NCBI RefSeq assembly: GCF_013315695.1
Contig: NZ_CP054353.1
Origin: Escherichia coli
GTDB taxonomy: Bacteria > Pseudomonadota > Gammaproteobacteria > Enterobacterales > Enterobacteriaceae
Reading direction: 5' to 3' (one strand)
DNA length: 64,000 nt
This document shows positions 5,128 through 63,700 of this stretch, one piece after another (the stretch's first letter is position 1; each line of letters starts with the position of its first letter). The translations under genes were made by a program, and so were the position numbers. The notes under the pieces were generated by a model. The model worked only from the letters and a program-made list of their open reading frames with translations. It made no database searches and was not told the origin of the DNA.

Positions 5128-6951
5128 GTGATCGAAAAATTGCGTAATATCGCCATCATCGCGCACGTAGACCATGGTAAAACCACCCTGGTAGACAAGC
5201 TGCTCCAACAATCCGGTACGTTCGACTCTCGTGCCGAAACCCAAGAGCGCGTGATGGACTCCAACGATTTGGAGAAAGAGCGTGGGATTACCATCCTCGC
5301 GAAAAACACCGCTATCAAATGGAATGATTACCGTATCAACATCGTTGATACCCCGGGGCACGCCGACTTCGGTGGTGAAGTTGAACGTGTAATGTCCATG
5401 GTAGACTCAGTGCTGCTGGTGGTTGACGCATTTGACGGCCCGATGCCGCAAACGCGCTTCGTAACCAAAAAAGCGTTTGCTTACGGCCTGAAGCCGATTG
5501 TTGTTATCAACAAAGTTGACCGCCCTGGCGCGCGTCCTGATTGGGTTGTGGATCAGGTATTCGACCTGTTCGTTAACCTCGACGCGACCGACGAGCAGCT
5601 GGACTTCCCGATCGTTTACGCTTCTGCGCTGAACGGTATCGCGGGTCTGGACCACGAAGATATGGCGGAAGACATGACCCCGCTGTATCAGGCGATTGTT
5701 GACCACGTTCCTGCGCCGGACGTTGACCTTGACGGTCCGTTCCAGATGCAGATTTCTCAGCTCGATTACAACAGCTATGTTGGCGTTATCGGCATTGGCC
5801 GCATCAAGCGCGGTAAAGTGAAGCCGAACCAGCAGGTTACTATCATCGATAGCGAAGGCAAAACCCGCAACGCGAAAGTCGGTAAAGTGCTGGGCCACCT
5901 CGGTCTGGAACGTATCGAAACCGATCTGGCGGAAGCTGGCGATATCGTTGCGATCACGGGCCTTGGCGAACTGAACATTTCTGACACCGTTTGCGACACG
6001 CAAAACGTTGAAGCGCTGCCGGCACTCTCCGTTGATGAGCCGACCGTTTCTATGTTCTTCTGCGTTAACACCTCGCCGTTCTGCGGTAAAGAAGGTAAGT
6101 TCGTAACGTCTCGTCAGATCCTGGATCGTCTGAACAAAGAACTGGTACACAACGTTGCGCTGCGCGTAGAAGAAACCGAAGACGCCGATGCGTTCCGCGT
6201 TTCTGGTCGTGGCGAACTGCACCTGTCTGTTCTTATTGAAAACATGCGTCGTGAAGGTTTCGAACTGGCGGTATCCCGTCCGAAAGTAATCTTCCGTGAA
6301 ATCGACGGTCGTAAACAAGAGCCGTATGAAAACGTGACGCTGGACGTTGAAGAACAGCATCAGGGTTCTGTGATGCAGGCGCTGGGCGAACGTAAAGGCG
6401 ACCTGAAAAACATGAATCCAGACGGTAAAGGCCGCGTACGTCTCGACTACGTGATCCCAAGCCGTGGTCTGATTGGCTTCCGTTCTGAGTTCATGACCAT
6501 GACCTCTGGTACGGGTCTGTTATACTCCACCTTCAGCCACTATGACGACGTACGTCCGGGTGAAGTGGGTCAGCGTCAGAACGGCGTACTGATCTCTAAC
6601 GGTCAGGGTAAAGCGGTAGCGTTCGCGCTGTTCGGTCTGCAGGATCGCGGTAAGCTGTTCCTCGGTCACGGTGCAGAAGTTTACGAAGGTCAGATTATCG
6701 GTATTCACAGCCGCTCTAACGACCTGACTGTAAACTGCCTGACCGGTAAGAAACTGACCAACATGCGTGCTTCCGGTACTGACGAAGCCGTTGTTCTGGT
6801 TCCGCCTATCCGCATGACTCTGGAACAAGCTCTGGAGTTCATCGATGATGACGAACTGGTAGAAGTGACTCCAACCTCTATCCGTATTCGTAAACGTCAC
6901 CTGACGGAAAACGATCGTCGTCGCGCCAACCGCGCACCGAAAGACGATTAA
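5128..6951 (+). CDS. typA: ribosome-associated translational GTPase BipA/TypA
   Basis: 607-aa ORF with GTG start; [10 protein letters not shown]1 motif, DTPGH G3 motif, NKVD G4 motif; EF-G-like domain order. Confidence 0.95.
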
Positions 6952-6970
6952 TTTCGTTTTTTAGTTATAA

Positions 6971-7001
6971 AAAACCTGCCATCGCTGGCAGGTTTTTTTT
7001 G
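6971..7001 (+). terminator. Rho-independent terminator of typA
   Basis: cctgccatcgctggcagg hairpin followed by tttttttt. Confidence 0.8.
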
Positions 7002-7056
7002 CTTATGGAAAACAAAATCCGCTGAAATTCCCAGCGGATTTTCCGAAATTTCAATT

Positions 7057-7845
7057 TCAGGATACTTCTTGCTCGGCAACCACCAGTTCAACATTCTCTT
7101 CACTTAACAACTGGCAGAAAGAATTGGGAGGCGGGGCATCAGTAAAAAAAGCCCTGACATTCCGTGCATTGCCAATTGAAACGGCAGCAGACGCGGCAAA
7201 CTTCGTATGATCGGCCACTAACAATGTATTCCGCGCATGTTTAATCATCGTTCTCGCGACTAACGCTTCATTTACATCAAATTCCAGTAGGGTGCCGTCA
7301 TGTTCAATGGCACCTATACTGGTGATTAAATAATCTGCGCGGAAGCCTTCAATAAAATCCACGGCTCCTGGGCCGATAATCCCGCCGTTATGAGCGCGTA
7401 AAGTGCCTCCCGGCACCATCACTTCAATATCCTGATTCTTATAAAGAATCTGTGCCACACGTAGGCTGTTAGTGATAATGCGTAAATCACGCCGGTTGAG
7501 TAATGCCCTGGCAACGGCTTCTACGGTTGTACCGATGGTGATAAAGACGGTACAGCGTTCGGGAAGGTAATCGGCGACTGCCTCAGCGATCGCCCGTTTC
7601 TCGGCGGTGAGCGAAAGTTCCCGTTGCTCAAAAGCGGTATTCATGACGCTGGAGACGCGCCCGGCCCCTCCATGATGACGGGTGATCAAGCCCTGCTCAC
7701 TGAGTTTTCGGATATCCCGGCGCACGGTTTGCGTTGAAACATCCAGCAGTTGTGCCAGTTCTTCAATATTCATATAACCGCGTTCTGCGATTAGATGAAC
7801 GAGTTGGTCATGGCGTGGATTACCTGTCACTTCGATGATACTCAT
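7057..7845 (-). CDS. DeoR-family transcriptional regulator (YihW/CsqR-like)
   Basis: 262-aa ORF; N-terminal HTH IEELAQLLDVSTQTVRRDIRKL; C-terminal DeoR sugar-phosphate-binding-type domain. Confidence 0.8.
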   Translation of the reverse strand: MSIIEVTGNPRHDQLVHLIAERGYMNIEELAQLLDVSTQTVRRDIRKLSEQGLITRHHGGAGRVSSVMNTAFEQRELSLTAEKRAIAEAVADYLPERCTVFITIGTTVEAVARALLNRRDLRIITNSLRVAQILYKNQDIEVMVPGGTLRAHNGGIIGPGAVDFIEGFRADYLITSIGAIEHDGTLLEFDVNEALVARTMIKHARNTLLVADHTKFAASAAVSIGNARNVRAFFTDAPPPNSFCQLLSEENVELVVAEQEVS

Positions 7846-7884
7846 GAATACTCCCTTGCCCCTCCTCGGTAGATGTTTACCATT

Positions 7885-8781
7885 TTACGCATAAAGTGAC
7901 AAAAATGATTCGGTTTGCTCACGATTAGGAATGCCGGCCCGACCGCCAGGCTGGGTACATTTCATCGCGGCAACCGCACTGGCAAAACGAATAGCCTCTT
8001 TTGTTGGCATTTTTTCTGCCAACGCTACCGCGAGTGCGCCGTGAAAAACATCGCCTGCTCCAGTGGTATCAACCACATTGACAGAAAATGCCTCCTGTTG
8101 ACACAAATGACCATCTTCAATCCACAACGATCCTTCAGAACCCAGCGTAACATACACTTTACCTGCTGTTTGTGTCGTTGCCTGGAACAAACCTTCTTCA
8201 GGTGACTGCAGGCCAGTCATGCGTTTCAGCCCTGGTGTTGAGAACACGGCGTGATCGGCAAGCGCGACAAGTGGAGAAATATCCTGCGGTGTCATATCGG
8301 CGTCTAAAAGCGTTGTCACACCCGCAAGGCGCGCTAGCGAGAATGCTTTTTCAGTACCGCTATGCCAGCGAACATCGGCCAGAATCAGATCATAACGAGA
8401 GAAATCGATCGCTTCTAACCATTCGGCATCAGTACCGAGATCAGGACTTGGATAATTAACGATAATCCGTTCGCCATGCTGATCAACGAGGATCGCTGAT
8501 TGCGACGAACGGGCGTTAGGATATCGGCGGCAAAATGCGGTATTGACGCCCCAACCCTCAAGTTCTGCAAGTAAGGTATTTCCACAACTGTCATCGCCGA
8601 CGCGACCGATGAAATCAACCTCCACGCCAAGCTTTGCGATTGCAACAGCGGCTGTTGCTGCCGGGCCGCCACCAATCTCAAGATAATGATTTGCCTGATA
8701 TTTCCCGCCGCCCTCCGGCAGAGTGGGCAAAGAATAAATTCTGTCCTGAACTGTGATACCCACGTATGCAATTCTGGTCAT
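7885..8781 (-). CDS. PfkB-family sugar kinase (YihV-like)
   Basis: Seen: GG dipeptide ...[13 protein letters not shown] and C-terminal [12 protein letters not shown]fkB signature; ATG at 8781 preferred over track TTG start at 8820. Confidence 0.8.
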
Positions 8782-8953
8782 ATTTGTCTTGTCCTGTTTA
8801 ATTTTGTCGTCTTTGGTCAATTTAAATGACGCAAATGATCAAATTAGTGATGCGTGTCGTGTTTTTGAACATAAATTACAAATATGCTCAAAAACAGACG
8901 AAAACGAATTTTCAATTGTCATTATTTTGTCAATGTCAGACAGGAGAGTATTC

Positions 8954-9832
8954 ATGGCAACCATTGCATTTCTCGGGCTGGGGCAGATGGGTAGCCCAAT
9001 GGCTAACAATCTATTGCAAAAAGGGCATTCATTGCAGGTATTTGATGTCAATGCACAGGCCGTCGATGCGCTAGTTACGCAGGGGGCCACTGCGGCACAA
9101 ACCCCAGCGGAAGCAGCAGCAGGCGCTGAATTTATCATCACTATGCTTCCCAATGGTGACATTGTTCGACAGGTTCTGTTGGGGGAAAAAGGCGTCTGTG
9201 AGGCTGTTTCATCTGACGCGTTATTGATTGATATGTCGACTATTCATCCCTTACAGACCGATGCATTAATACGGGAGTTACAAGAAAAAGGCATCAGTAT
9301 GATGGACGCTCCCGTGGGCAGAACGTCCGTGAATGCGATTGATGGCACATTGCTGATTTTAGCGGGTGGCACTGATGAGCAGATTGCACGTGCACGCCCG
9401 ATTCTCATGTGCATGGGTAATGAGCTGGTCGAGGCTGGCGGCCCAGGAATGGGGATCCGCGTGAAGCTAATTAACAACTATATGAGCATTGCGCTTAATG
9501 CGCTGTCCTCCGAGGCCGCTGTGTTATGTGAGTCACTGGGATTAAATCTTGATGTCGCAATTAAGGTGATGAGTGGTACGGCAGCAGGGAAAGGACATTT
9601 TACGACCACCTGGCCTGGCAAAGTGCTGAAAGGCGATCTTTCACCCGCCTTCATGGTGGATCTGGCGTTGAAAGATCTGCGTATTGCAGTTGACGTCGCT
9701 CGGGAGACGGGGGCACCGCTCAATATGGGGATTGCAGCAGAAAGTTATTACGCTGCAGCAAGTCAAGACGGCAAAGGGCGGCAGGACTGGAGTGCCCTGC
9801 TAAATCAGGTTCGCCAGCAGGCTGGTCTTTAA
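8954..9832 (+). CDS. NAD(P)-dependent beta-hydroxyacid dehydrogenase (YihU-like, 3-hydroxyisobutyrate dehydrogenase family)
   Basis: Start ATG at 8954 preceded by aggaga RBS; Rossmann motif [14 protein letters not shown]; track ORF begins earlier at a non-ATG codon. Confidence 0.8.
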
Positions 9833-9856
9833 TTTTATCTATTAACAGGAGTTTCT

Positions 9857-10744
9857 ATGTCATCCCACTTCACCCCATTTACGCTGAAAGATATCTCCCG
9901 CCCAGGTGGTGGATTTGCCATGTTAGCTGTCGATCAGCGTGAGGCCATGCGCTTGATGTTTGCGGCAGCAGGGCAGCCAAAACCCATCGCCGACAGTGTA
10001 CTCACCGATTTTAAAGTTGCCGCGACCCGAATCCTTTCTCCTTATGCTTCTGCCGTTCTGGCGGATAAACAATTTTGTCTTGAGCAAATAGTCGAGCAGG
10101 GCGCTGTTGCTAATTCTTGCGGCCTGATTGTCGCTGCCGATCTTTTTATCCCAGGTAATGGCATCCCGGTTGATAGCGTTGAAATAGATATGTCCGTCGA
10201 CCCGCATAAAGCCCGTGAAATGGGGGCTAAGGCAATGAAATTACTTGTACTCTGGCGTGAAGATGAACCCGCAGAGGAACGTCTGGCAATGGTTGATAAA
10301 TTTGTTCGTCGCTGCCGTAGTGCCGGGCTGGTGAGCATTATTGAACCTGTGGTGCGTCCACCTCGTCGCGGTTGGGACTTTGATCGTGAAAGCGCCATTG
10401 TTGCCGCCGCCGCAGAGCTTGGTGGAACAGAGGCTGATCTTTACAAAGCCGAGATGCCATTAGGGGGCAAAGGCGATGAAAAAACCTTACTTGCCGCCTG
10501 TCAGCAACTTAACGATCAGATGAAGATGCCGTGGGTAATTCTTTCTTCTGGCGTTGATGCCGATATTTTTGGCCGTGCAGTAAGTATTGCCATGAAAGGT
10601 GGTGCGTCGGGCTTCCTGGCTGGACGAGCGGTTTGGGCGTCGGTTGTTGGTGCACAAGATCCACAAACTATGCTGCGCGATGTCTCTGTTCCTCGTTTAC
10701 AACGGTTGGCAGAAATTGTCGATGAAGGTATCGCGCAACGCTAA
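9857..10744 (+). CDS. class I aldolase, YihT/LacD-like (sugar-phosphate aldolase)
   Basis: 295-aa ORF with RBS aggag; resembles the YihT sulfofructose-phosphate aldolase / tagatose-bisphosphate aldolase family from memory. Confidence 0.7.
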
Positions 10745-10776
10745 TCCCCTATGGATATCGATTCTGGAGAATAACA

Positions 10777-11787
10777 ATGGATAAAATTACCCAGGTTTTA
10801 TTTTCAGATATTGGGAAAGTCACCACTCAATATGTTGAAGTACCACACCAGGAACTTAAACCGCACGAAGTGCGGATTGCGCCTGTGTTCTATGGGATAT
10901 GCGGTTCGGATCTGCATGTTCTGAAAGGCGGTCATCCGTTTGCCAAACCACCTGTCGTCCCCGGTCATGAAATTGCAGCGCGCGTTACGGAAGTTGGCAG
11001 CGACGTTAAAAATGTACAGCCGGGCGATCATGTTGTGGTCGATCCCATCATGGCTTGCATGGAATGCCGAGCCTGCAAAGCAGGACGTTTTAATCTTTGT
11101 GAACCACCGCAGGTTGCTGGTTTTCGCGCACCGGGCTTTGCTCGCTCACAACACATTGTTCCTGCGCGTAATTGCCATGTCGCACCAGCCTCTTTACCGC
11201 TAAAAGTGTTGGCCTTTGCCGAACCGGCGGCTTGTGCCCGTCACTGCGTTAACCGAATGCCGAAAGCTTCTCTGGAAAGCATACTGGTAATTGGTGCCGG
11301 AACGATAGGCTTATCCATCGTGCAGGCACTGCGCATTATGGGGGCAGGTAAGATTACCGTGATTGAACCTGACGCTGCCAAACGCGCGCTGGCGTTAAAG
11401 CTGGGCGCAGCAGAAGTTTGGGCACCAGGTGAGCTGGCCGCAGATGTGCGATTTACGGGGGCGATTGATGTCGTTGCAGCGCAGGCCACGCTTAACGATG
11501 CATGTACCCGTGTATATGCCGGAGGCACCGTCGTGTGCATGGGCGTACCAAGTGGGCCGCGTGAAATACCATTACCGATGATGCAACGTTTCGAGCGTGA
11601 CTTGCTCAACTCTGGCATGTACATCCCTGAAGATTTCGATGCTGTTATCGAATGGCTGGCGGATGGGCGGTTTGATACCAGTGAACTGGTTACCGATTTA
11701 TTTGCCATTGAGGATGCAGCGGCGGCATTTGAACGCGCGCAGCAAAATGACTCCATAAAGGTCATGCTGCAATTTGTGCCGGAATGA
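10777..11787 (+). CDS. zinc-dependent alcohol/polyol dehydrogenase (MDR superfamily)
   Basis: GICGSDLHV and PGHEIAARV zinc/catalytic motifs; second Cys cluster CMECRACKAGRFNLC (structural Zn); GAGTIG NAD-binding motif. Confidence 0.8.
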   Translation: MDKITQVLFSDIGKVTTQYVEVPHQELKPHEVRIAPVFYGICGSDLHVLKGGHPFAKPPVVPGHEIAARVTEVGSDVKNVQPGDHVVVDPIMACMECRACKAGRFNLCEPPQVAGFRAPGFARSQHIVPARNCHVAPASLPLKVLAFAEPAACARHCVNRMPKASLESILVIGAGTIGLSIVQALRIMGAGKITVIEPDAAKRALALKLGAAEVWAPGELAADVRFTGAIDVVAAQATLNDACTRVYAGGTVVCMGVPSGPREIPLPMMQRFERDLLNSGMYIPEDFDAVIEWLADGRFDTSELVTDLFAIEDAAAAFERAQQNDSIKVMLQFVPE

Positions 11788-11856
11788 TTTTCTAAATCTC
11801 TGTCTGGCGCTGCGTCACGTCAGCGCCACCCTACAACAATTAAAAAGGACACTGCG

Positions 11857-13290
11857 ATGAGTCAAATCACCAGTCCTGCAACTTATTCAATTAGTCGGCC
11901 ACAGGACGTAATTGATATTGTTAATAAGAACTCTGCAATCAACACCAGTATCGGCGTTATTTTTATTGCTTTGGGCGGCATATTGATTGATGCCTACCAG
12001 GCGGCGATGGTGGGGTTTGGTAATAAATACATTGCCGCTCAATTCGGCATTTCGCCGGGTCTTGCTGCAACCGTCAATGCATCAGTATTAATCGCCGCGT
12101 TAATTGGCGGTTTATTAGCGAACCGAGTAATAAACCGCTTTGGGCAAAAGCGGGCATTTATTATTGGCATGGGGCTGTGCACCATCGGTGCTGCAGCGGT
12201 AGCTATTGCTCCCAGTATCTGGTGGGTGCTGGTGTGCCGCGTCATCATGGGCTTTGGTTTAGGCATCGACTTCCCTTTGGCAACCAATGCCGTGGCAGAG
12301 CTTCGTGGTTCAACGTCGAAGAAAACCGGAACGTCGGTCAACCTCTGGCAAATGGCCTGGTATGTTTCGACAACCGTTGTTTATTTGGTACTTTTGCCGC
12401 TGCTTCTGTCGGGTATCGCTGAAGAACAATTGTGGCGTTACGGAATATTCATCGGAGCTATTTTTGCAGTCATCTTCATGATTTTGCGTTACTTCTTTAT
12501 TGGTGAATCCGCAATGTGGGCCGCACGCGTCGGGCGTTACCAGGAAGCGTGCGACATTCTGGGAAAACGTTATGGTGTTCAGGCTCGCGTTGCGGCATCG
12601 GGTACAACAGAAGCGAAATTCTCGGAAAAAGCAGAGAATAAATACAGTGGTGGATATGGCATCTTATTTAATGATCGTTACCGCAAACGCACCATTCTTG
12701 GCTGTGTCGTGGCAACCATGCAGGCGTGGCAATATAACGCCGTAGGTGTTTATCTTCCTCTTACGTTGGCGGGAATAATAAGTGGCGGGCTTACTGGCGC
12801 GTTGACCGGTTCTGCCGTCGTGAATGCCCTTTGTGGGGTGACAGGCGGGATGATCGGCTCGTTTATTCTCCAACGACTGGGTACTCGCCGACAGTCGATG
12901 TATGGATTTGCTGTTGTGACCTTAGCATTGCTGTCGTTAGGCGCACTGGCAACGACTAATCCCTGGCTGTCTTTAGGATTATTGGGATCAATTATTTTCT
13001 TCCATTCAGCGGGTCCTGGTGGGCTGGGCATGACCATTGCCACACTCTCTTATCCTCCCGCTATTCGCCCTACTGGGGTCGGATTTGCCCGCGCTATTAT
13101 GCGCACAGGGGCAATTGCAGGACTCATTTTCTGGCCGATGCTGTGGGGTGCGTTGAAAACTGAAGCGTTTTACTGGTTGGCAATCGTGCCATTCCTGGGG
13201 TTCCTGACCTGCGTATTGATTAATTGGGAACCACTGGGTGCAAATGTTGATGCTGAGGATGCAGAGGTTCTGGCTGAATTGAAGAAATAA
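11857..13290 (+). CDS. MFS-type transporter (sugar porter-like)
   Basis: 477-aa highly hydrophobic ORF with about 12 predicted TM segments; MFS-like GxLaNRxGQKR loop. Confidence 0.7.
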   Translation: MSQITSPATYSISRPQDVIDIVNKNSAINTSIGVIFIALGGILIDAYQAAMVGFGNKYIAAQFGISPGLAATVNASVLIAALIGGLLANRVINRFGQKRAFIIGMGLCTIGAAAVAIAPSIWWVLVCRVIMGFGLGIDFPLATNAVAELRGSTSKKTGTSVNLWQMAWYVSTTVVYLVLLPLLLSGIAEEQLWRYGIFIGAIFAVIFMILRYFFIGESAMWAARVGRYQEACDILGKRYGVQARVAASGTTEAKFSEKAENKYSGGYGILFNDRYRKRTILGCVVATMQAWQYNAVGVYLPLTLAGIISGGLTGALTGSAVVNALCGVTGGMIGSFILQRLGTRRQSMYGFAVVTLALLSLGALATTNPWLSLGLLGSIIFFHSAGPGGLGMTIATLSYPPAIRPTGVGFARAIMRTGAIAGLIFWPMLWGALKTEAFYWLAIVPFLGFLTCVLINWEPLGANVDAEDAEVLAELKK

Positions 13291-13327
13291 ATTAATGCGC
13301 ATCGGCTTAAACCGATGCGCATTAATT
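13290..13327. repeat. perfect 16-bp-arm palindrome between the two transporter genes
   Basis: aattaatgcgcatcgg-cttaaa-ccgatgcgcattaatt; no following T-run. Confidence 0.6.
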
Positions 13328-13388
13328 CAAACTGCCCACGTTTAGTGGTTCGTATCCCAGATTTCTCGCCTACCAGGAGAGGAAAATT

Positions 13389-14738
13389 ATGTCTGAAAAG
13401 TTACCCGCACCGCGTGAAGGGCTTTCCGGTAAAGCCATGAGACGTGTCGTTATGGGCAGTTTCGCAGGCGCGTTAATGGAATGGTATGACTTCTTTATTT
13501 TTGGCACGGCAGCAGGACTGGTATTTGCACCGCTGTTTTATCCAGACAGCGATCCTTTTATAGGTCTTATAGCCGCCTTTGCGACCTTTGGTGTCGGTTT
13601 TCTGACTCGTCCTTTAGGTGGCATCGTCTTTGGTCATTTTGGCGATAAAATCGGGCGAAAAATAACACTTATCTGGACGCTGGCTATTGTCGGTTGCTCC
13701 ACATTTTTGATTGGTTTTATTCCGACGTATCAGGAAATTGGCATTTGGGCACCGCTTGTATTAATGGTGCTGCGTTTGATTCAGGGCTTTGGTCTTGGTG
13801 GCGAGTACGGCGGAGCGGCATTGATGACCATAGAATCAGCGCCCGAATCCCGACGCGGATTTTTAGGTTCACTCCCGCAAACGGCTGCGTCAGTGGGTAT
13901 TATGCTGGCAACCGGTATTTTTGCTCTCTGTAACCATTTTCTTACTTCGGAGCAGTTTCTCTCCTGGGGATGGCGCATTCCGTTTTGGCTTTCTGCGGTG
14001 ATGTTGATCGTTGGGCTGTTTATCCGCCTGCATACCGAAGAAACACTGGATTTTCAAAAGCAAAAAACGACGAATAATAAAGAAAAGTCCGTTCCTCCGT
14101 TGATTGAATTATTCAAAAAACATCCACGAAATATTTTATTGGCACTGGGTGCGAGGCTGGCGGAAAGTGTCTCCTCTAATATTATTAACGCCTTTGGTAT
14201 TGTCTATATTTCCAGCCAATTAGCATTGTCGCGAGATATTCCCCTGACGGGTATGTTGATTGCCTCGGCGATCGGTATTTTCAGTTGTCCATTGGTTGGA
14301 TGGTTATCAGATCGTATAGGTCAAAAAAGTCTGTATTTGTCGGGAGCAGGATTTTGTGTCCTGTTCGCGTTTCCTTTCTTCTTATTACTGGATAGCAAAA
14401 GTACGCTCATCATCTGGTGCAGTATGATCCTCGGCTACAACTTAGGTCCGACGATGATGTTTGCCGTGCAGCCAACACTTTTCACCCGCATGTTCGGTAC
14501 CAAAGTACGATATACCGGCCTTTCTTTTGCTTATCAATTTTCCGCGATTCTTGGCGGACTAAGCCCCCTTATCGCCTCAAGTTTGCTGGCGCTAGGGGGA
14601 GGAAAACCGTGGTATGTCGCTCTGTTTTTATTTGCTGTCTCAGTTCTTTCCTTTGTTTGCGTCTGGCTGATTGAGCCGACCGATGAACAAGAAACCGCTT
14701 CTTACCGCTACATCAGGGAACAATCTCATGAAAACTGA
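13389..14738 (+). CDS. MFS transporter, metabolite:H+ symporter (MHS)-like
   Basis: 449-aa ORF; N-terminal MEWYDFFIFGTAAG and GHFGDKIGRK motifs typical of the ProP/KgtP/ShiA family. Confidence 0.7.
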   Translation: MSEKLPAPREGLSGKAMRRVVMGSFAGALMEWYDFFIFGTAAGLVFAPLFYPDSDPFIGLIAAFATFGVGFLTRPLGGIVFGHFGDKIGRKITLIWTLAIVGCSTFLIGFIPTYQEIGIWAPLVLMVLRLIQGFGLGGEYGGAALMTIESAPESRRGFLGSLPQTAASVGIMLATGIFALCNHFLTSEQFLSWGWRIPFWLSAVMLIVGLFIRLHTEETLDFQKQKTTNNKEKSVPPLIELFKKHPRNILLALGARLAESVSSNIINAFGIVYISSQLALSRDIPLTGMLIASAIGIFSCPLVGWLSDRIGQKSLYLSGAGFCVLFAFPFFLLLDSKSTLIIWCSMILGYNLGPTMMFAVQPTLFTRMFGTKVRYTGLSFAYQFSAILGGLSPLIASSLLALGGGKPWYVALFLFAVSVLSFVCVWLIEPTDEQETASYRYIREQSHEN

Positions 14739-15615
14739 ACGAAAAAACGAGCATTACCTGGCGCTACAACAGGCGTTTGACGCGCCATGGCCTGGGCCTG
14801 TAGGAGAGTTAGTGACGCTGGAAAAAGGCAATATTCACCTGCAGATTTATCCGCATGATGGTGCCAGGATAACCTCGTTAAAGGCATTTGGTTCTGAAGT
14901 ATTACGCCAATGGCAGCCGCAGCGCAGAGCTTTTCAGTATGGCTGTTTCCCAATGGTGCCGTGGGCAGGGCGACTGGGGAATGCGACGCTGAATGCTGGT
15001 GGGCAATGTTATTCTTTACCCGCCAATAAACCACCACATGCGTTGCATGGTATGGCTTGTTACTCAACGTGGGAAATCATCGACAAAACAGCAGATTCCC
15101 TGACTTTACGTATGCCCCTGGCTTCACCGTGGCCCTGGCAAGGGGAAGTGATTCAGACTTTTTTGCTGGAGAACGATGCGCTGGTTTTGCAACTGGAAGT
15201 CCATTCATATGCCGATACATTCCCGGCCTCCGCAGGCTGGCATCCGTGGTTTGCGAAAAAGCTGACTCCGCAAAATACAGAATCGTTGCAGGTGCTTTTT
15301 GATGCGGACTGGCAAGAAGAAGCGGGTAGTGATGAACTGCCAACTGGAAATCGTATCTCTCCTCAAGCCGGTCCCTGGGATGACTGTTTTGGTTTTTATA
15401 ACGGGGTGAAGGTTAAGTTACTGTGGCCTGGTAAACTCGCGATGACCATGATCTCTTCTGCAAACAGTCTGGTGGTATTTGATAAACAGCCCGATGCCAC
15501 CTGTATTAACCCGCTGACTCAGGCACCTAACGCAATAAATCTAACGCCGGAATTGGTGACACCAGATAGGCCGCTGGTCATCGAAACTCGTTGGCAATTT
15601 ACACCTGAATCTTAA
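14728..15615 (+). CDS. aldose 1-epimerase family protein (YihR-like mutarotase)
   Basis: ATG at 14728 overlaps the preceding stop (ATGAAAACTGA); HPYFNL-like region and conserved His/Glu pattern of the galactose-mutarotase fold. Confidence 0.65.
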   Translation: MKTERKNEHYLALQQAFDAPWPGPVGELVTLEKGNIHLQIYPHDGARITSLKAFGSEVLRQWQPQRRAFQYGCFPMVPWAGRLGNATLNAGGQCYSLPANKPPHALHGMACYSTWEIIDKTADSLTLRMPLASPWPWQGEVIQTFLLENDALVLQLEVHSYADTFPASAGWHPWFAKKLTPQNTESLQVLFDADWQEEAGSDELPTGNRISPQAGPWDDCFGFYNGVKVKLLWPGKLAMTMISSANSLVVFDKQPDATCINPLTQAPNAINLTPELVTPDRPLVIETRWQFTPES

Positions 15616-15755: not shown

Positions 15756-16355
15756 ATGCTCTATATCTTTGATTTAGGTAATGTGATTGTCGATATCGAC
15801 TTTAACCGTGTGCTGGGAGCCTGGAGCGATTTAACGCGTGTTCCACTGGCTACGCTTAAGAAGAGTTTCCACATGGGCGAGGCGTTTCATCAGCATGAGC
15901 GTGGGGAAATTAGCGACGAAGCGTTCGCAGAGGCGCTGTGTCATGAGATGGCTCTACCGCTAAGCTACGAGCAGTTCTCTCACGGCTGGCAGGCGGTGTT
16001 TGTCGCGCTGCGCCCGGAAGTGATCGCCATCATGCATAAACTGCGTGAGCAGGGGCATCGCGTGGTGGTGCTTTCCAATACTAACCGCCTGCATACTACC
16101 TTCTGGCCGGAGGAATACCCGGAAATCCGTGATGCTGCTGACCATATCTATCTGTCGCAAGATCTGGGGATGCGCAAACCTGAAGCACGAATTTACCAGC
16201 ATGTTTTGCAGGCGGAAGGTTTTTCACCCAGCGATACGGTCTTTTTTGACGATAACGCCGATAATATAGAAGGAGCTAATCAGCTAGGCATTACCAGTAT
16301 TCTGGTGAAAGATAAAACCACCATCCCGGACTATTTCGCGAAGGTGTTATGCTAA
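15756..16355 (+). CDS. yihX: alpha-D-glucose-1-phosphate phosphatase (HAD family)
   Basis: Start ATG after aaggagg RBS; HAD motif [12 protein letters not shown]; 199 aa. Confidence 0.9.
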
Positions 16356-17655: not shown

Positions 17656-18641
17656 GCCAGCTTCCAGGGTTGTCACGGGAAACAAGAGAGAGTATCGCTA
17701 TGTATCACCTTCGGGTTCCACAAACAGAAGAAGAATTAGAGCGTTACTATCAGTTTCGCTGGGAAATGTTGCGTAAGCCCCTGCATCAACCGAAAGGTTC
17801 GGAACGCGACGCGTGGGATGCGATGGCGCATCACCAGATGGTCGTCGACGAGCAGGGTAATCTGGTGGCGGTAGGCCGACTGTATATTAATGCCGACAAT
17901 GAAGCGTCCATTCGCTTTATGGCCGTTCATCCCGACGTGCAGGACAAAGGGTTAGGAACGCTGATGGCGATGACCCTTGAGTCGGTGGCGCGTCAGGAAG
18001 GCGTTAAGCGCGTGACCTGTAGTGCCCGTGAAGACGCGGTGGAGTTTTTTGCCAAACTGGGGTTTGTCAATCAAGGGGAGATCACTACCCCAACCACCAC
18101 GCCGATTCGCCATTTTTTGATGATTAAACCCGTTGCCACTCTGGATGATATTTTGCATCGCGGCGACTGGTGCGCGCAGCTGCAACAGGCGTGGTACGAA
18201 CATATCCCGCTGAGTGAAAAAATGGGCGTGCGCATTCAGCAATATACCGGGCAAAAATTTATCACCACCATGCCGGAAACCGGTAATCAGAATCCGCACC
18301 ATACGCTGTTTGCCGGGAGTTTATTCTCACTGGCAACGCTCACCGGTTGGGGACTTATCTGGCTGATGCTGCGTGAACGCCATCTGGGCGGTACGATTAT
18401 TCTGGCGGATGCGCATATTCGCTACAGCAAGCCGATTAGCGGTAAACCTCATGCGGTAGCCGACCTCGGTGCCTTAAGCGGCGATCTCGACCGTCTGGCG
18501 CGCGGGCGCAAAGCGCGGGTACAAATGCAGGTCGAAATCTTTGGCGACGAGACGCCGGGCGCAGTGTTTGAAGGCACGTATATCGTTCTGCCCGCGAAGC
18601 CATTTGGCCCGTATGAAGAGGGCGGGAACGAAGAAGAGTAG
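17652..18641 (+). CDS. yiiD: GNAT acetyltransferase / thioesterase-fold protein YiiD (FabY)
   Basis: 329-aa ORF; N-terminal GNAT domain and C-terminal hot-dog-like region; overlaps dtd stop. Confidence 0.88.
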
Positions 18642-18647
18642 CTGATG

Positions 18648-18671
18648 GAGAGGGGCGGTGCTGCCTCTCTC
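18648..18671 (+). terminator. hairpin downstream of yiiD (possible terminator)
   Basis: gagagg-ggcggtgctgcc-tctctc inverted repeat followed by a U-rich stretch. Confidence 0.4.
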
Positions 18672-19056
18672 ATTCTTTCAGGTCATTTACATCAGCCCCT
18701 GACTATTTCGGTTATATTGAATAAGAACTCCATAAATTTTTATTCTTCGTTGGCACCATACGTGTCTTGCTACATCACTGTTCAGGAGCATTTAAATATT
18801 ATTTGTAGAGCTGAGTGGCAATTATCGCTGATAATGCTTAATTCATCATCTTAGTTCAGGTTTGAGCGATTTTTGATAGTCAAAATCCCCTCTGGTGCCA
18901 TACTTTTCTCATAAATATTTTTAAAATCTATAGCTAACAAACATTATGCAAAGATAATGGACTGGCGTCATTGTCAGTATCATTCATTTACTGCTTCTGG
19001 ATGTTGTAAATAATTATGTGGCATGTTTGCTCTTAAACCGTGGGAAGGAGGCTGTA

Positions 19057-20871
19057 ATGGTTGCCAATATTAATCTCATTAAACAAGAAAGTTATTCTAT
19101 TGTTAATTTAGAAAAACAACTAATGAGTAATGAATCACCGAAGCAAACGCTATTAAATGATTTTTCACATCGCCTTAAAATGGAAGGTGAGGAGCAACTG
19201 TGCGATTGTGTTAACGAACTTAAACTCGGGTTGTCGAGTAATAATAAATATGACCTGTTTAAAAATAAAGAAACCTCACTGTGGAAACGCAAAGTACCAG
19301 AAAGTGCAGCGCTGGCAATGACGGGAACAGTATATAAATTATTTGGTAGTCGCTTACTCAACGTCCGCAATCAGTTAGATAAAAATCTCCTCGAAATGGC
19401 TATGCAAATGGTTTATGGCAAAGATATGGTGACAAAGTCCGGGGATATATTGATTGATATACAATTAAACAAGGATGGCAGCCTCCAGAGTAAGCACTAC
19501 ACATTTGATGTAGGTGAAGTTATAAACAGTTATAATATTGACCTCTTTGTGAATGCTTCGAGTATTAATCAAACTTACTTACATGATAAAAATCCTGGTG
19601 ACGTTATTAGCCTGTATGACACTTTAGATAACATTCCTCTTGTAGTTAAGGAATGCACGGGTAAAAATCATCAAATTAACGTTAAAGCCAAATTGCCTCA
19701 AGAACGAAGTGAAAAAGTTGAGGATATGTGTGAAAGAATGAGAGGTGGCATCTCTATGTTTAATCACACTACAAAAACAGCTGGTAATATAGAGCATAAT
19801 TTGCAGCTAAGTTTTCTCGTGGATTCACGACCGTCGATCACAAATAAATACTCAGTCAAAGATGTAGGTCCAGATATACTTGCATTACCCGTCAACGTAT
19901 ATCATGCAGATTTTAAAATTAAAATCAATAATGCAGTAGAGAAGGCTTCGTCAATTGTGTTATGTGCTGTGCAAAAAAATCTCCATGCAGCAAGAAAGGT
20001 TCTTGGCGGGATAATAGGAAATGTGCCAAAAAATAATAAACCAAAAACAATCATTTTTGATTTACGTTTTCTTAGTGCAATTAAGCAGAAAGTTTTTTTG
20101 GGCAGTGAAAAACCGTTGTTTGTAAAGCATACCGCAATGATGAGGGAGGCATGTGAGGAATTACCGCAGTCAGTGGAATATGTTCCTTTAGCCTGTGAAG
20201 CGCATAGCCATCGCAGCGTCGCCCTTGCCAAAACCGTGGCTGCGCCCATCATGGCGACAGGTGTGGGCTCGGCTTTAATGTATGCAACATCATCAGGACC
20301 GTATTATGCACAAAGTCTTTCTGGTTCGCCGGATATCGAGATGATAAAAAATCGCATGGCTCAATTGTTTACCCAATTGGATGCTTCTGTGCGCAACAAA
20401 TATCGCCCGGCTTTTGATAAATGGAATGAGCTGGTAGATAAATTAAATCACGAAAGAAATACAGTTCCGTTTGCGTGTTTGACCACCATTTTAGCGACGG
20501 CGATAAATGAAACTCCTGAGGGGGATACGAATGTTGCCGTTGTGATGGGGTGTAAATCTGCGAAAGATCGCACGATATCCATTGTCCTTGGCAACTCGAT
20601 GTTGCAAACACTCTTTGAAAAACGCCTCGCTGATGATGGAGAAATAGAAAATCTTGTTGATCAACAGGGATATTTTAACTGCGATTCATTAACAGCCGAA
20701 GAATTAATGATATTAAAAGACCTTTTTGATATTCGAGTTCTTCATGTCTCTAACAAATTCAATGTTGGGTTTCAAGGTAATATCAACACTGATGTTTTAC
20801 AAGATTCGTTTTTTAAAAATGTCGATTTCATTCATGAATCTAGCTCGTATACCGTAGGGATGGGAGTCTGA
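19057..20871 (+). CDS. putative phosphoinositide phosphatase, SopB/IpgD-like (candidate type III effector); accessory gene
   Basis: ORF 19018..20871; ATG at 19057 preceded by strong RBS gggaaggagg; product contains CKSAKDRT (CX5R P-loop as in inositol polyphosphate 4-phosphatases and SopB/IpgD); gene and flanks visibly AT-rich; absent from K-12 yiiD-yiiE interval as remembered. Confidence 0.6.
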   Translation: MVANINLIKQESYSIVNLEKQLMSNESPKQTLLNDFSHRLKMEGEEQLCDCVNELKLGLSSNNKYDLFKNKETSLWKRKVPESAALAMTGTVYKLFGSRLLNVRNQLDKNLLEMAMQMVYGKDMVTKSGDILIDIQLNKDGSLQSKHYTFDVGEVINSYNIDLFVNASSINQTYLHDKNPGDVISLYDTLDNIPLVVKECTGKNHQINVKAKLPQERSEKVEDMCERMRGGISMFNHTTKTAGNIEHNLQLSFLVDSRPSITNKYSVKDVGPDILALPVNVYHADFKIKINNAVEKASSIVLCAVQKNLHAARKVLGGIIGNVPKNNKPKTIIFDLRFLSAIKQKVFLGSEKPLFVKHTAMMREACEELPQSVEYVPLACEAHSHRSVALAKTVAAPIMATGVGSALMYATSSGPYYAQSLSGSPDIEMIKNRMAQLFTQLDASVRNKYRPAFDKWNELVDKLNHERNTVPFACLTTILATAINETPEGDTNVAVVMGCKSAKDRTISIVLGNSMLQTLFEKRLADDGEIENLVDQQGYFNCDSLTAEELMILKDLFDIRVLHVSNKFNVGFQGNINTDVLQDSFFKNVDFIHESSSYTVGMGV

Positions 20872-20997
20872 AGAGTAAAACTTATTAGAATTACCAGAAT
20901 TCGGCCAATGCATTGCAAAAATGACATACAAAGAGAGATGTGCGCAGGCACTTAGCCGCGAGGGGCATGGCGAAGCCATACAGAAAGCACCAGCATT

Positions 20998-21041
20998 CAG
21001 AACTCCTGTGAAAGCGGCATAGTGCCGCCTGCTCAGGAGTT
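20998..21041 (+). terminator. extended stem-loop downstream of the effector-like gene
   Basis: aactcctg-tgaaa-gcggca-tag-tgccgc-ctgct-caggagtt followed by tttt. Confidence 0.4.
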
Positions 21042-35574: not shown

Positions 35575-36969
35575 ATGAAAAAATCGACATTATCTTTAGC
35601 CATCGGTTTATTATTGGCATGTAGTACCGGAATGGCAAAAACACAGCATTTAACGCTGGAACAACGCATGGCATTGCTGGAAGAACGCCTGGAAGCGGCA
35701 GAAATGCGGGCAGCAAAAGCAGAGAGCCAGGTTAAACAGCTGCAGACACAACAAGCCGCTGAGATCCGCGAAATTAAGGCTGCCCAGGGCAATACGCCGG
35801 TAAATGGACAGGCAACGGCGGAATCTGCAAAGAAAAATTCCACCTCACCTAATCTTTTGCTCTCAGGTTATGGCGATTTAAAAATCTACGGCGACGTAGA
35901 ATTTAATATGGATGCGGAAAGTAATCATGGCCTGCTGGCAATGACCAACGCTGATGTGAATAGCGATCCCACTAATGAACAGTGGAATCTCAATGGTCGT
36001 ATTTTGTTAGGTTTTGATGGTATGCGAAAACTGGATAATGGCTATTTCGCCGGGTTCTCCGCACAACCGCTGGGGGATATGCACGGTTCAGTAAATATCG
36101 ATGATGCGGTTTTCTTCTTTGGCAAAGAAAACGACTGGAAGGTCAAAGTAGGCCGTTTTGAAGCCTACGATATGTTCCCGCTGAATCAGGATACCTTTGT
36201 TGAACATTCCGGTAATACTGCGAACGATCTTTATGACGATGGCAGCGGTTATATCTATATGATGAAAGAGGGCCGCGGGCGCTCTAACGCTGGCGGTAAT
36301 TTCCTCGTCAGCAAACAACTTGATAACTGGTATTTTGAATTAAACACGTTACTTGAAGACGGAACATCTTTATATAATGACGGTAATTATCATGGACGCG
36401 ATATGGAGCAGCAGAAAAATGTTGCTTATCTGCGTCCGGTAATTGCCTGGTCGCCGACAGAAGAATTCACCGTTTCCGCAGCGATGGAAGCGAACGTGGT
36501 AAATAATGCTTATGGTTATACCGATAGCAAGGGTAATTTTGTCGATCAGTCCGATCGTACCGGCTATGGTATGAGCATGACCTGGAATGGCCTGAAAACG
36601 GATCCGGAAAATGGCGTCGTGGTTAATCTTAATACCGCCTATTTAGATGCTAATAATGAGAAAGATTTCACTGCCGGGATTAACGCGCTGTGGAAACGTT
36701 TCGAGCTGGGTTATATCTACGCGCACAATAAGATTGATGAATTCAGCGGTGTAGTTTGTGATAACGACTGCTGGATTGATGATGAAGGGACGTACACCAT
36801 TCACACCATTCATGCGTCTTATCAGTTCGCTAATGTGATGGATATGGAGAACTTTAATATTTACCTCGGGACGTATTACTCCATTCTGGATAGCGACGGT
36901 GATAAAAAACACGGTGATGATACTGATGACCGTTACGGCGCACGCGTTCGCTTTAAATACTTCTTCTGA
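35575..36969 (+). CDS. putative outer-membrane carbohydrate porin with N-terminal coiled coil (accessory gene)
   Basis: Signal peptide MKKSTLSLAIGLLLACSTGMA; heptad-like LEQRMALLEERLEAAEMRAAKAESQVKQLQTQQ; alternating beta-strand-like body; C-terminal ...RFKYFF aromatic terminus; AT-rich; no gene here in K-12 as remembered. Confidence 0.65.
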   Translation: MKKSTLSLAIGLLLACSTGMAKTQHLTLEQRMALLEERLEAAEMRAAKAESQVKQLQTQQAAEIREIKAAQGNTPVNGQATAESAKKNSTSPNLLLSGYGDLKIYGDVEFNMDAESNHGLLAMTNADVNSDPTNEQWNLNGRILLGFDGMRKLDNGYFAGFSAQPLGDMHGSVNIDDAVFFFGKENDWKVKVGRFEAYDMFPLNQDTFVEHSGNTANDLYDDGSGYIYMMKEGRGRSNAGGNFLVSKQLDNWYFELNTLLEDGTSLYNDGNYHGRDMEQQKNVAYLRPVIAWSPTEEFTVSAAMEANVVNNAYGYTDSKGNFVDQSDRTGYGMSMTWNGLKTDPENGVVVNLNTAYLDANNEKDFTAGINALWKRFELGYIYAHNKIDEFSGVVCDNDCWIDDEGTYTIHTIHASYQFANVMDMENFNIYLGTYYSILDSDGDKKHGDDTDDRYGARVRFKYFF

Positions 36970-62235: not shown

Positions 62236-62950
62236 ACTTCACTGCATTTTTAGCGGAAAGCATAATCTCCATCGCCTGTTGGCGATATTTATCTGCCGTA
62301 TCTGGCGCCATTAATGCAATGATCCCCACAGCCCTGGGGGTGTCTTCAAGATAAACACTGATGGTTCTTTTCTGCTGACCATCAAAATTTATCAACACAT
62401 CCTGATACTTACAGGTGAAATGTTTGGCATTACAATCATGAAACTGGAAGGCTTCCTCATTGTATTGATCCTTGAGATTGTCTCGCTGCTTCTTCTTTAA
62501 CGCTTCCAGCGGGTCATCGGCGCTACGTCCTGCGGGCAGACGGAAAGCAGAAATGAAGACGCTATTATCCTCACTTCTTATATCAATGGTTTTATTAGTA
62601 CTAATGGAAACCGTATTCCAGTGTCGGTTCGGGATAGTCACGGTTATCGCAGCATTCTCAAAGGTATATTGCCACGGGGTAAACATACGAAACGTATTGC
62701 CGACTTTGGATAAAAGCAGGATTCCCAATACCCAACAGCACCCGCGAGTAAAACTGGCGAAGTTACGTGTTTTTTTAATAAATGCGCACAGAATACCTGA
62801 CACAAGCACGGGAAGTAACAACGGCCCCAGAAATACTGAACCGATATACTCGCCAACCATGCCAGGATCTCCAGACAGTAGGTTGCTGTGCTGAAGATGA
62901 CTAAGAAAAGTAGTTATTATCCATAGTATTAATAAGATAACGTATCTCAT
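62234..62950 (-). CDS. hypothetical membrane protein (3 predicted N-terminal TM helices plus C-terminal domain), paralog A; accessory
   Basis: 238-aa ORF with RBS aaggga; hydrophobic segments near 3-19, 35-58, 70-83; shares W.YTF..ITVT.P and H.C....F.C.YQ motifs with the upstream ORF; AT-rich. Confidence 0.6.
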   Translation of the reverse strand: MRYVILLILWIITTFLSHLQHSNLLSGDPGMVGEYIGSVFLGPLLLPVLVSGILCAFIKKTRNFASFTRGCCWVLGILLLSKVGNTFRMFTPWQYTFENAAITVTIPNRHWNTVSISTNKTIDIRSEDNSVFISAFRLPAGRSADDPLEALKKKQRDNLKDQYNEEAFQFHDCNAKHFTCKYQDVLINFDGQQKRTISVYLEDTPRAVGIIALMAPDTADKYRQQAMEIMLSAKNAVK

Positions 62951-62982
62951 ATCAATCCCTTATTATTAACATACACATCAGA

Positions 62983-63669: not shown

Positions 63670-63671
63670 GT

Positions 63672-63700
63672 ATAAAAAAGGGGAATTTAATTCCCCTTTT
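63672..63700. terminator. bidirectional-type terminator hairpin downstream of rraA
   Basis: aaaaaa-ggggaatttaattcccc-tttt. Confidence 0.65.

Follow-up and report, generated by a model that had tools for sequence, protein, structure and literature searches.

An eight-gene variant of the yih locus of Escherichia coli as a candidate sulfoglycolysis module with a zinc-dependent dehydrogenase and no sulfoquinovose isomerase

In Escherichia coli K-12, sulfoquinovose (SQ) is degraded by sulfoglycolysis of the Embden-Meyerhof-Parnas type (the sulfo-EMP pathway), encoded by the yih cluster (ompL-yihOPQRSTU and yihV-csqR), which lies between typA (bipA) and yihX. In the E. coli sequence analyzed here, a stretch of 64,000 nucleotides of contig NZ_CP054353.1 (assembly GCF_013315695.1; hereafter the window), the same site is occupied by eight genes that couple a homologous regulator-kinase-reductase-aldolase core to a zinc-dependent dehydrogenase (Zn-dehydrogenase), two major facilitator superfamily (MFS) transporters and an epimerase-like gene. 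On balance, we favor reading this cluster as a complete, functional sulfo-EMP variant that would act on a free sulfonated C6 carbohydrate without a sulfoquinovosidase or an SQ isomerase.

This variant of the locus has been reported before. Kaznadzey et al. (2025; PMC12608037) named it the "short cassette (yihTUVW)" and treated it as truncated. It was found in strain Nissle 1917 (phylogroup B2) and in many pathogenic strains, with enrichment among pathogens. It occupies the same site as the long cassette in reversed orientation, the YihW protein of Nissle is 72% identical to CsqR, homologs of yihO-S occur nowhere in genomes with the short cassette, and Nissle has no YihS homolog. The growth of Nissle on SQ was comparable to that of K-12, and the authors inferred that the SQ function of the cassette was probably lost. 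The window agrees with this description in its site, its orientation, the restriction of its homologs to yihTUVW and a YihW ~72% identical to CsqR. The degenerate yihU/V primers of that study also have matches in the window where they would be expected (8752-8771 and 8996-9016).

The published account, however, is one of four genes and of truncation, whereas the interval in the window holds eight genes, so that "short" understates its content. The Zn-dehydrogenase, the two MFS transporters and the epimerase-like gene are not mentioned in that paper (its main text has 0 occurrences of "zinc" and 0 of "alcohol dehydrogenase") and are not among the differentially expressed genes of its supplementary tables, which give no absolute values. 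Nor does it include knock-outs or describe the eight genes as a module with conservation in other phyla. The variant also goes unmentioned in a 2026 review of SQ catabolism, and a literature search with six WP accessions of the cluster returned no paper. The locus variant is therefore already known, and only the four-gene extension and its nature as a conserved module go beyond the literature. The eight-gene unit under purifying selection, the dehydrogenase-transporter module in three phyla and its tie to sulfonate genes appear to be undescribed.

An alternative allele between typA and yihX

The window is E. coli chromosomal DNA, with glnALG and typA (5128-6951; its protein is 100% identical to K-12 BipA) followed by the variant segment and by yihX-yihY-dtd-fabY, of which yihX (15756-16355) is the right neighbor of the cluster. 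Genes were called from open reading frames (ORFs) and from the PGAP annotation of a 100%-identical copy in strain AF3. These calls bear out the gene content, order and strands given in an earlier note on this DNA, which was made from the sequence alone (Table 1). The overlong ORF starts at 8753 and 8820 arose mechanically and are artefacts; in the annotation these genes start at 8954 and 8781. By blastn, the flanks share 98-99% nucleotide identity with K-12; this identity ends at ~7000 and restarts at 15689, and the K-12 match inside the segment is limited to 7169-10683, at 66-67% and in reverse orientation; within it, 7169-9699 aligns at 67%. The inversion of the regulator-kinase/reductase-aldolase core relative to K-12, which the note had also claimed, is thereby confirmed.

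When K-12 proteins were used as tblastn queries against the whole window, YihQ, YihS, YihO, YihP and OmpL were missing, as the note had stated, and no homologs of YihL, YihM and YihN were found. The note was mistaken in placing yihLMN on the minus strand of K-12, where these genes lie on the plus strand. That the cluster might consist of near-identical K-12 genes in K-12 order is rejected, as the core has ~67% nucleotide identity and is inverted and the other genes are absent. Compared with the K-12 yih cluster, the window thus shares the site, the homologous core and a divergent promoter architecture. It differs in lacking YihQ, YihS, OmpL, the GPH-type permeases YihO/YihP and yihLMN, and in having, in addition, the Zn-dehydrogenase together with two MFS transporters that belong to other families. 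Gaps of 24-98 nt lie between the six plus-strand genes, and the final two overlap by 11 nt, which points to a single operon divergent from the regulator-kinase pair.

The cluster is present in 1325 of 5426 complete E. coli genomes, or about a quarter, when presence is defined as at least 95% identity over at least 80% of the 8.6-kb query. The K-12 ompL-yihS segment is present in 3879 of the same 5426 genomes. The cluster and the K-12 form represent alternative alleles at a single locus.

Each of the eight reading frames is intact. In a comparison with Citrobacter sp. R56, seven of the genes had dN/dS values between 0.017 and 0.093; saturation of dS prevented an estimate for the DeoR gene, whose dN was 0.052. 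These values indicate that all eight genes are under purifying selection, and hence point to a functional cluster. The dS of the cluster genes was 1.5-2.7, whereas that of the adjacent typA was 0.54. Such a difference means either that the allele predates the split between E. coli and Citrobacter or that it was exchanged horizontally. In Citrobacter sp. R56, yihLMN are kept beside the cluster, and an autotransporter gene lies between the cluster and yihX.

Table 1. Positions of the cluster genes and associated elements in the window
Feature	Position	Strand	Description
Terminator of typA	6969-6998	+	Opposite the DeoR-side hairpin at 7014-7042
Terminator-like hairpin	7014-7042	-	After the DeoR gene; left boundary of the replaced segment
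DeoR/GlpR regulator	7057-7845	-	PGAP in AF3; 262 aa; CsqR/YihW homolog
PfkB sugar kinase	7885-8781	-	PGAP in AF3; 298 aa; YihV-type, sulfofructose kinase-like
Divergent regulatory region	8782-8953		Between kinase and reductase genes
Beta-hydroxyacid dehydrogenase (reductase)	8954-9832	+	PGAP "yihU sulfolactaldehyde 3-reductase"; 292 aa
Class I aldolase, YihT-type	9857-10744	+	PGAP in AF3; 295 aa; sulfofructose-1-phosphate aldolase-like
NAD-type Zn-dependent medium-chain dehydrogenase	10777-11787	+	WP_000357965; 336 aa; PGAP zinc-dependent alcohol dehydrogenase
MFS transporter 1 (MFS1)	11857-13290	+	Sugar-porter / aromatic-acid:H+ symporter-like; 477 aa
Perfect palindrome, 19-bp stem	13288-13329		TAAATTAATGCGCATCGG-CTTA-AACCGATGCGCATTAATTCA; between MFS1 and MFS2
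MFS transporter 2 (MFS2)	13389-14738	+	Metabolite:H+ symporter (MHS, ShiA-like) family; 449 aa
Aldose-1-epimerase-family protein	14728-15615	+	295 aa; 11-nt overlap with MFS2 stop

The sulfosugar-type core and its promoter region

The substrate pockets of the K-12 enzymes have been described by Sharma et al. (2021; PMC8006165). In YihV, Lys27, Asn109 and Arg138 form the sulfonate pocket, Asp13 and Ser95 contact the C3/C4 hydroxyls, and Asp244 is catalytic; the corresponding residues are the Schiff-base Lys193, Ser226, Ser227, Arg253 and Ala26 in YihT, and Asn174, Ser178 and Arg123 in YihU. The kinase of the window is 67.0% identical to YihV and keeps the K27-N109-R138 triad together with D13, S95, D162 and D244. 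Likewise, the aldolase (66.7% identical to YihT) keeps K193, S226, S227, R253 and A26, and the reductase (72.6% identical to YihU) keeps R123, K171, N174 and S178. The reductase also passes the NCBIfam sulfolactaldehyde reductase equivalog NF012005, with 581 bits against a cut-off of 348. Since all published sulfonate-pocket and catalytic residues are kept, the core would still run from 6-deoxy-6-sulfofructose (SF) through SF-1-phosphate to dihydroxyacetone phosphate (DHAP) and sulfolactaldehyde (SLA), and from SLA to 2,3-dihydroxypropane-1-sulfonate (DHPS). In terms of these residues, the core is predicted to remain sulfosugar-specific. Retention of the sugar-hydroxyl ligands of the kinase further argues for a substrate with the fructo configuration, namely SF, and not for an epimer.

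The DeoR repressor is 71.5% identical to K-12 CsqR and keeps Met25; its top NCBIfam match is a DeoR/GlpR model, under the cut-off. The divergent promoter region was aligned with those of K-12, Citrobacter, Budvicia and Vibrio. A 29-bp block at 8871-8899 (ATAAATTACAAATATGCTCAAAAACAGAC) shares 27 of its 29 bases with the yihU/yihV intergenic region of K-12, and this shared block fits the cross-binding observed in published electrophoretic mobility shift assays.

A tagatose-, galactitol- or deoxyribose-type operon was considered and rejected. All relevant NCBIfam models scored below their cut-offs: the aldolase reached 136 bits with the subfamily model of tagatose-bisphosphate aldolase (cut-off 184) and 44 with lacD (cut-off 432), and the Zn-dehydrogenase reached 112 with GatD (cut-off 550). 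No phosphotransferase system genes were present in the cluster. Neither of the two findings that the earlier note had named as refuting it, near-identity to the K-12 set in the same order and grouping with such an operon, was thus made.

The zinc-dependent dehydrogenase and its module across phyla

The Zn-dehydrogenase is the signature enzyme of the cluster. In 29 family members, the ligands of the catalytic zinc (C42/H64/E65/E149), those of the structural zinc (C94/C97/C100/C108) and the GxGxxG motif at 173-178 (G173/G175/G178) are invariant, and the NAD-type acidic position E197 is nearly invariant (at least 90%). A second subfamily, 43-47% identical to the window enzyme, has the same zinc, NAD and Arg117 positions, and the zinc sites, GxGxxG and E197 are kept in its aligned representatives. 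The gene also has the lowest dN/dS in the cluster (0.017). Judged by its zinc sites and motifs, the protein looks like an active NAD-dependent polyol-type enzyme. It scored below the cut-off of every NCBIfam equivalog compared (RspB-like PRK10083, IolM, Tdh, IdnD and GatD), the best being 163 against 376 bits. Three family members are named "L-gulonate 5-dehydrogenase" by JGI.

The closest solved structure is that of E. coli RspB (4ilk), with ~35% identity and the HPFAK motif common to both proteins. RspB (EC 1.1.1.380) reportedly oxidizes L-gulonate to D-fructuronate. L-Gulonate has a glucitol skeleton with an anionic C6, and the product of an RspB-type reaction is the corresponding 2-ketose. 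RspB, the sorbitol/xylitol dehydrogenases and the "polyol route", which turns an aldose into a ketose by a reductase and a dehydrogenase, are among the closest known systems. The window enzyme resembles RspB and the sorbitol/xylitol dehydrogenases in fold family, zinc sites and NAD motif, and its proposed reaction would resemble that of RspB in oxidizing the hydroxyl beside a terminal CH2OH, with an anionic group at the far end. Unlike RspB, it belongs to a family of its own with Arg117, and its genomic partners are sulfoglycolysis genes, not mannonate/uronate genes. Both subfamilies keep R117 (replaced by Lys in Prauserella) at a position that is His in RspB, which makes this residue a candidate ligand of the sulfonate group.

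Relatives of the enzyme form ~100 clusters (at 90% identity) that are 52-94% identical to it, followed by a gap down to at most 48%. They occur in Enterobacterales (Citrobacter, Budvicia, Leminorella, Edaphovirga, Buttiauxella, Jejubacter and Tenebrionibacter), in Vibrio, in Alphaproteobacteria (Rhodopseudomonas palustris BisB18, Pleomorphomonas, Telmatospirillum and Rhodovastum) and in Actinobacteria (Streptomyces and Propionibacteriaceae). The second subfamily was found in Pseudomonas sp. (L093, JGI 3300014630), Acidisphaera sp. L21 (L094) and two metagenomic contigs. In a profile scan of genome contigs with the family alignment, 7 of 80 loci were relevant, and the others contained other medium-chain dehydrogenases/reductases.

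In all 15 related loci examined, the Zn-dehydrogenase is accompanied by a regulator (DeoR), a kinase (PfkB), an aldolase and an MFS transporter. One of these, Citrobacter sp. Cu233, is represented by a stretch that ends before the regulator and kinase, and the aldolase was not looked for in it. The loci come from Citrobacter, Budvicia, Tenebrionibacter, Jejubacter, Vibrio, Rhodopseudomonas, Pleomorphomonas, Rhodovastum, Streptomyces, Propionibacteriaceae, Prauserella, Pseudomonas and Acidisphaera, and the beta-hydroxyacid dehydrogenase, the second MFS transporter and the epimerase-like gene are usually present as well. No isomerase (YihS) or glycosidase (YihQ) gene was found within the cluster in any of the 15 loci; in one metagenomic locus (L092), a PF07221 (YihS family) gene lies ~5 kb off, beyond unrelated genes. 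A separate aldose reductase is conserved in none of the clusters. The flanks vary by locus and include an autotransporter, an integrase, fatty-acid genes and siderophore genes, indicating that the gene set is self-contained. The locus of Jejubacter calystegiae is a minimal version of the module, and at 12571-15329 of that locus it has, as possible further members, genes for an MR_MLE enolase-superfamily protein and an aldehyde dehydrogenase, with a GntR regulator, following the Zn-dehydrogenase-MFS1 pair.

Across phyla, the aldolase, Zn-dehydrogenase, MFS1, MFS2 and epimerase-like proteins are 50-78% identical to those of the window. In the enterobacterial and Vibrio versions of the module, these three genes are of the YihV/YihU/CsqR type. 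A composite make-up is thus suggested for the E. coli cluster, in which a widely travelled aldolase-dehydrogenase-transporter block would have been combined with a yih-type kinase, reductase and regulator, and the note's word "re-composed" suits it. These data also bear on the view that the locus is a decaying or regulatory remnant, a "short yihTUVW cassette" with no sulfosugar function whose four downstream genes are unrelated neighbors. The first three steps of the K-12 pathway are indeed absent, and in Nissle 1917 there was no SQ induction and weaker repressor binding (PMC12608037). A remnant would hardly be expected to retain eight intact frames with the low dN/dS values of the seven genes estimated, a gene set 95-100% conserved in 1325 genomes, and the tight spacing of one operon; moreover, the four extra genes and the aldolase co-travel across phyla and are more conserved than the kinase and reductase. 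We regard this view as very improbable.

The module is associated with sulfonate genes in the second subfamily. There, the gene order, seen in L091, L093 and L094, is DeoR | PfkB - aldolase - TauE - Zn-dehydrogenase - MHS transporter, and a TauE-family exporter is encoded in three of the four second-subfamily loci. The aldolases of this subfamily are 47-50% identical to YihT with the whole pocket kept, and the class I aldolases of related clusters all keep the YihT pocket (K193, S226, S227, R253 and A26). In Pseudomonas L093, a GabD-like aldehyde dehydrogenase gene comes next, and a GntR regulator, a pair of a 99-aa protein and a GD_AH-family protein, and two Ldh_2 proteins adjoin. The top NCBIfam match of the Ldh_2 proteins is L-sulfolactate dehydrogenase, below the cut-off, and the pair has what we take to be the architecture of the sulfolactate sulfo-lyase SuyAB. 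The Pseudomonas set may possibly represent a complete route from a sulfosugar to sulfite.

The enzymes of the module are also exchanged between loci. A class II aldolase replaces the class I enzyme in Budvicia, Tenebrionibacter, Vibrio and Jejubacter, and an aldehyde dehydrogenase replaces the reductase in Jejubacter and Pseudomonas sp., that of Pseudomonas being similar to GabD/succinate-semialdehyde dehydrogenase. The module varies in the same ways as known sulfoglycolysis, since swaps of aldolase class (class II SqiA) and from reductase to aldehyde dehydrogenase characterize the hybrid sulfo-EMP1/sulfo-EMP2 pathways (Sharma et al., 2023; PMC10665668). Unlike the present module, those hybrids all retain an SQ isomerase (PF07221 or PF02952). 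The survey in that study left out aldolases outside sulfo-EMP gene groupings.

A similar arrangement was described in Paracoccus wurundjeri by Stewart et al. (2025; PMC12421959), in whose cluster 2 a "threonine dehydrogenase" (MDP0926266) lies near a PfkB protein (MDP0926268) and a PF01791 aldolase (MDP0926269). As in the window, a PF08240-PF00107 Zn-dehydrogenase gene stands two genes from those for PfkB and a YihT-family aldolase, with no isomerase, and the cluster adjoins SuyAB/SlcC/ComC, the same kind of neighborhood as in Pseudomonas L093. MDP0926266 was more abundant on sulfofucose, and the recombinant enzyme was negative on SLA, its only tested substrate. In contrast to our proposal, P. 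wurundjeri degrades sulfofucose by an Entner-Doudoroff (ED)-type route, and its kinase and aldolase were not induced. MDP0926266-0926269 look like the same module; two protein searches named no Paracoccus member of the Zn-dehydrogenase family, and the orthology of MDP0926266 is thus unconfirmed.

Both transporters belong to organic-anion-type MFS groups, as judged by their family matches, which supports the pathway proposed below. MFS1 matches NCBIfam models at subfamily level only, all below cut-off, and its orthologs (62-91% identical) adjoin the Zn-dehydrogenase in other phyla. MFS2 scores 407 bits with TIGR00883 and 411 bits with the shikimate transporter model, both below cut-off, and has orthologs at 61-89% identity. 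MFS1 is the sole MFS transporter in Jejubacter, and an MHS-type transporter is the sole one beside the second-subfamily Zn-dehydrogenases. A palindrome begins at the MFS1 stop codon, 60 nt before MFS2, and could be an intra-operon attenuator or an mRNA-stabilizing hairpin.

The epimerase-like protein has a distant K-12 counterpart in YihR, with 27% identity over 164 residues, about half of the protein. Its orthologs carry PF01263, and H107 and H172 are kept in the window protein. The mutarotase catalytic Glu is replaced by Asn (~residue 262; "VEPMS" of YihR against "INPLT"). This Asn variant is found in E. coli, Citrobacter sp. R56 and Vibrio, and Glu is kept in the orthologs of R. palustris, Budvicia and Tenebrionibacter. 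The gene has the highest dN/dS of the cluster genes estimated (0.093), and it is missing in Streptomyces, Prauserella, Jejubacter and the second-subfamily loci.

Proposed pathway, alternatives and significance

In a gene-by-gene match to the K-12 pathway, the window has counterparts for all functions but YihQ and OmpL. For the YihS step this leaves only the Zn-dehydrogenase, which is therefore proposed to act upstream of the kinase as the SF-forming enzyme. In the pathway that we favor, one MFS transporter would import the substrate, and the Zn-dehydrogenase would convert it into SF with NAD. The simplest chemistry would be oxidation of the C2 hydroxyl of 6-deoxy-6-sulfo-D-glucitol ("sulfoquinovitol"), the sulfonate analogue of the conversion of L-gulonate to D-fructuronate or of sorbitol to fructose. 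The YihV-type kinase would then form SF-1-phosphate, the YihT-type aldolase would split it into DHAP and SLA, the YihU-type reductase would reduce SLA to DHPS, and the second MFS transporter would export DHPS. The CsqR-like repressor would govern both divergent operons through the operator region common with K-12. Here we infer the place of the dehydrogenase, its substrate, the import and export roles of the MFS transporters and the role of the epimerase-like protein.

The sequence of dehydrogenation, phosphorylation, aldol cleavage and reduction suggested in the earlier note fits the 15 related loci with no glycosidase or isomerase in the cluster, and also the slot of YihS that the Zn-dehydrogenase fills in the gene-by-gene match to the K-12 pathway. 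The note's suggestion that the substrate is probably not a sulfoquinovoside also fits. The wider guess of a "(sulfo)sugar alcohol or deoxy-sugar" has been narrowed towards a sulfonated substrate by the pocket residues and by the TauE, GabD-like and SuyAB-like genes. More generally, it seems possible, and is put forward tentatively, that the Zn-dehydrogenase family provides a new isomerase-independent entry into sulfoglycolysis, by either a sulfo-polyol route or an NAD-mediated redox isomerization of SQ.

Several points weigh against the favored pathway. To our knowledge, no member of the Zn-dehydrogenase family has been assayed, and we know of no natural source of a 6-deoxy-6-sulfohexitol. Full-text literature searches found no paper under 6-sulfo-alditol names and nothing pertinent on sulfofructose in combination with polyols or sorbitol dehydrogenase. 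Because polyols lack anomers, the mutarotase-family gene that most clusters carry is hard to account for. This objection is softened by the absence of the gene from several versions of the module and by the loss of the catalytic Glu in E. coli, Citrobacter and Vibrio. SQ did not induce yihT/U/V/W in Nissle, whose cassette the authors regard as inactive (PMC12608037). Finally, the kinases, reductases and regulators of the alpha-proteobacterial and actinobacterial loci are only 24-34% identical to YihV, YihU and CsqR, the kinases have no K-N-R and the reductases no N174/S178 signature, so that sulfonate specificity in those lineages rests on the aldolase and the neighboring genes.

The last point is also an argument for a non-sulfonated substrate, such as a neutral or carboxylated polyol or a deoxy-sugar (for example, a 6-deoxyhexitol, hexitol or aldonate) degraded via a ketose-1-phosphate, with the Yih similarity reflecting common ancestry only. 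The nearest characterized relatives of the dehydrogenase act on sugar acids and polyols, and the genes are not induced by SQ in Nissle (PMC12608037), which would also suit such a substrate. But every sulfonate-contact residue is kept in three window enzymes at 67-73% identity, the reductase exceeds a curated equivalog cut-off, the module aldolases all keep the YihT pocket, and TauE, GabD-like, SuyAB-like and sulfolactate-dehydrogenase-like genes occur in or beside related modules. K-12 YihV and YihT were, moreover, reported to be inactive on phosphate analogues (PMC8006165). A non-sulfonated substrate is thus considered unlikely.

Another possibility is that the substrate is SQ itself. The Zn-dehydrogenase, possibly with the epimerase-like protein opening the ring, would then replace YihS by an NAD-mediated conversion of aldose to ketose, through reduction at C1 to the alditol and re-oxidation at C2 or through a hydride shuttle via bound NAD, in a pathway for free SQ. 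The one-to-one match of genes to the K-12 pathway would then include the mutarotase-family gene, uncatalyzed SQ mutarotation is slow (PMC5902678), and the lack of a conserved separate aldose reductase would be accounted for. Nissle 1917 grows on SQ like K-12 without a YihS homolog (PMC12608037). In the same strain, the repressor binds DNA more weakly at 37°C and is partially and weakly released by SQ, so the cluster could be constitutive, which would explain the missing differential expression. Against this, SQ failed to induce the cluster genes, with an apparent repression of yihU (PMC12608037), and the E. coli protein no longer has the mutarotase's catalytic Glu. In lysate of sulfofucose-grown P. 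wurundjeri, where the Tdh-like Zn-dehydrogenase of unconfirmed orthology was abundant, no sulfofucose isomerase activity was found (PMC12421959). We are also aware of no earlier case in which a medium-chain Zn-dehydrogenase works as an aldose-ketose isomerase. Taken together, SQ as the substrate appears rather doubtful, if still the most serious of the rivals to the sulfo-polyol route.

The Zn-dehydrogenase might also serve a downstream or side branch, acting for example on DHPS, SLA or another sulfonate, with SF or another sulfoketose imported by cross-feeding from SQ-isomerizing bacteria. Imported sulfoketose would make an isomerase unnecessary, bacteria containing YihS yield an equilibrium mixture of SQ, SF and sulforhamnose (PMC8006165), and P. 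wurundjeri had more of its Tdh-like protein in a setting that requires SLA processing. That protein, however, did not oxidize SLA with NAD+ or NADP+ (PMC12421959). The cluster also already encodes a dedicated enzyme for SLA, either a reductase or an aldehyde dehydrogenase, and SF is not known to be available outside cells as a free nutrient. In addition, no other gene of the cluster is as strongly constrained as that of the dehydrogenase, which always stands beside a transporter. There is little probability in our view that the enzyme has such a role.

Some other features of the window were observed outside the cluster. A low-GC stretch (0.36-0.41) lies at ~18500-22000 after fabY, with an ORF at 19018-20871; the AF3 annotation has a partial hypothetical gene and a transposase there, upstream of yiiE, suggestive of a small insertion of foreign DNA. 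Between frvA and rhaM (~35575-36969) there is a "carbohydrate porin" gene, and between zapB and rraA (~62316-63739) there are two hypothetical genes. The porin gene and the zapB-rraA genes are presumably absent from K-12, in which case they would be strain-variable insertions.

The turnover of SQ forms one of the major branches of the sulfur cycle and, depending on diet, supplies the gut with DHPS and in the end with H2S. In present surveys sulfoglycolysis is found mainly via yihQ and the isomerase, so genomes with the module described here would be scored as negative or "truncated". If the module works, it changes which E. coli lineages count as users of sulfosugars and producers of DHPS. If the proposed role of the dehydrogenase is true, a sulfofructose-forming Zn-dehydrogenase would be a new enzyme activity of sulfoglycolysis, could explain the growth of Nissle on SQ without YihS, and would give a function to the orphan "threonine dehydrogenase" of organosulfonate clusters. 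If the sulfo-polyol route is true, a reduced sulfosugar would be a real nutrient in the environment and the gut. With either form of the entry reaction, a quarter of E. coli strains, Nissle 1917 and, by the published account, many pathogens among them, would hold a new sulfosugar pathway, as would scattered members of the Alphaproteobacteria, Gammaproteobacteria and Actinobacteria, and surveys based on yihQ/yihS markers would miss it.

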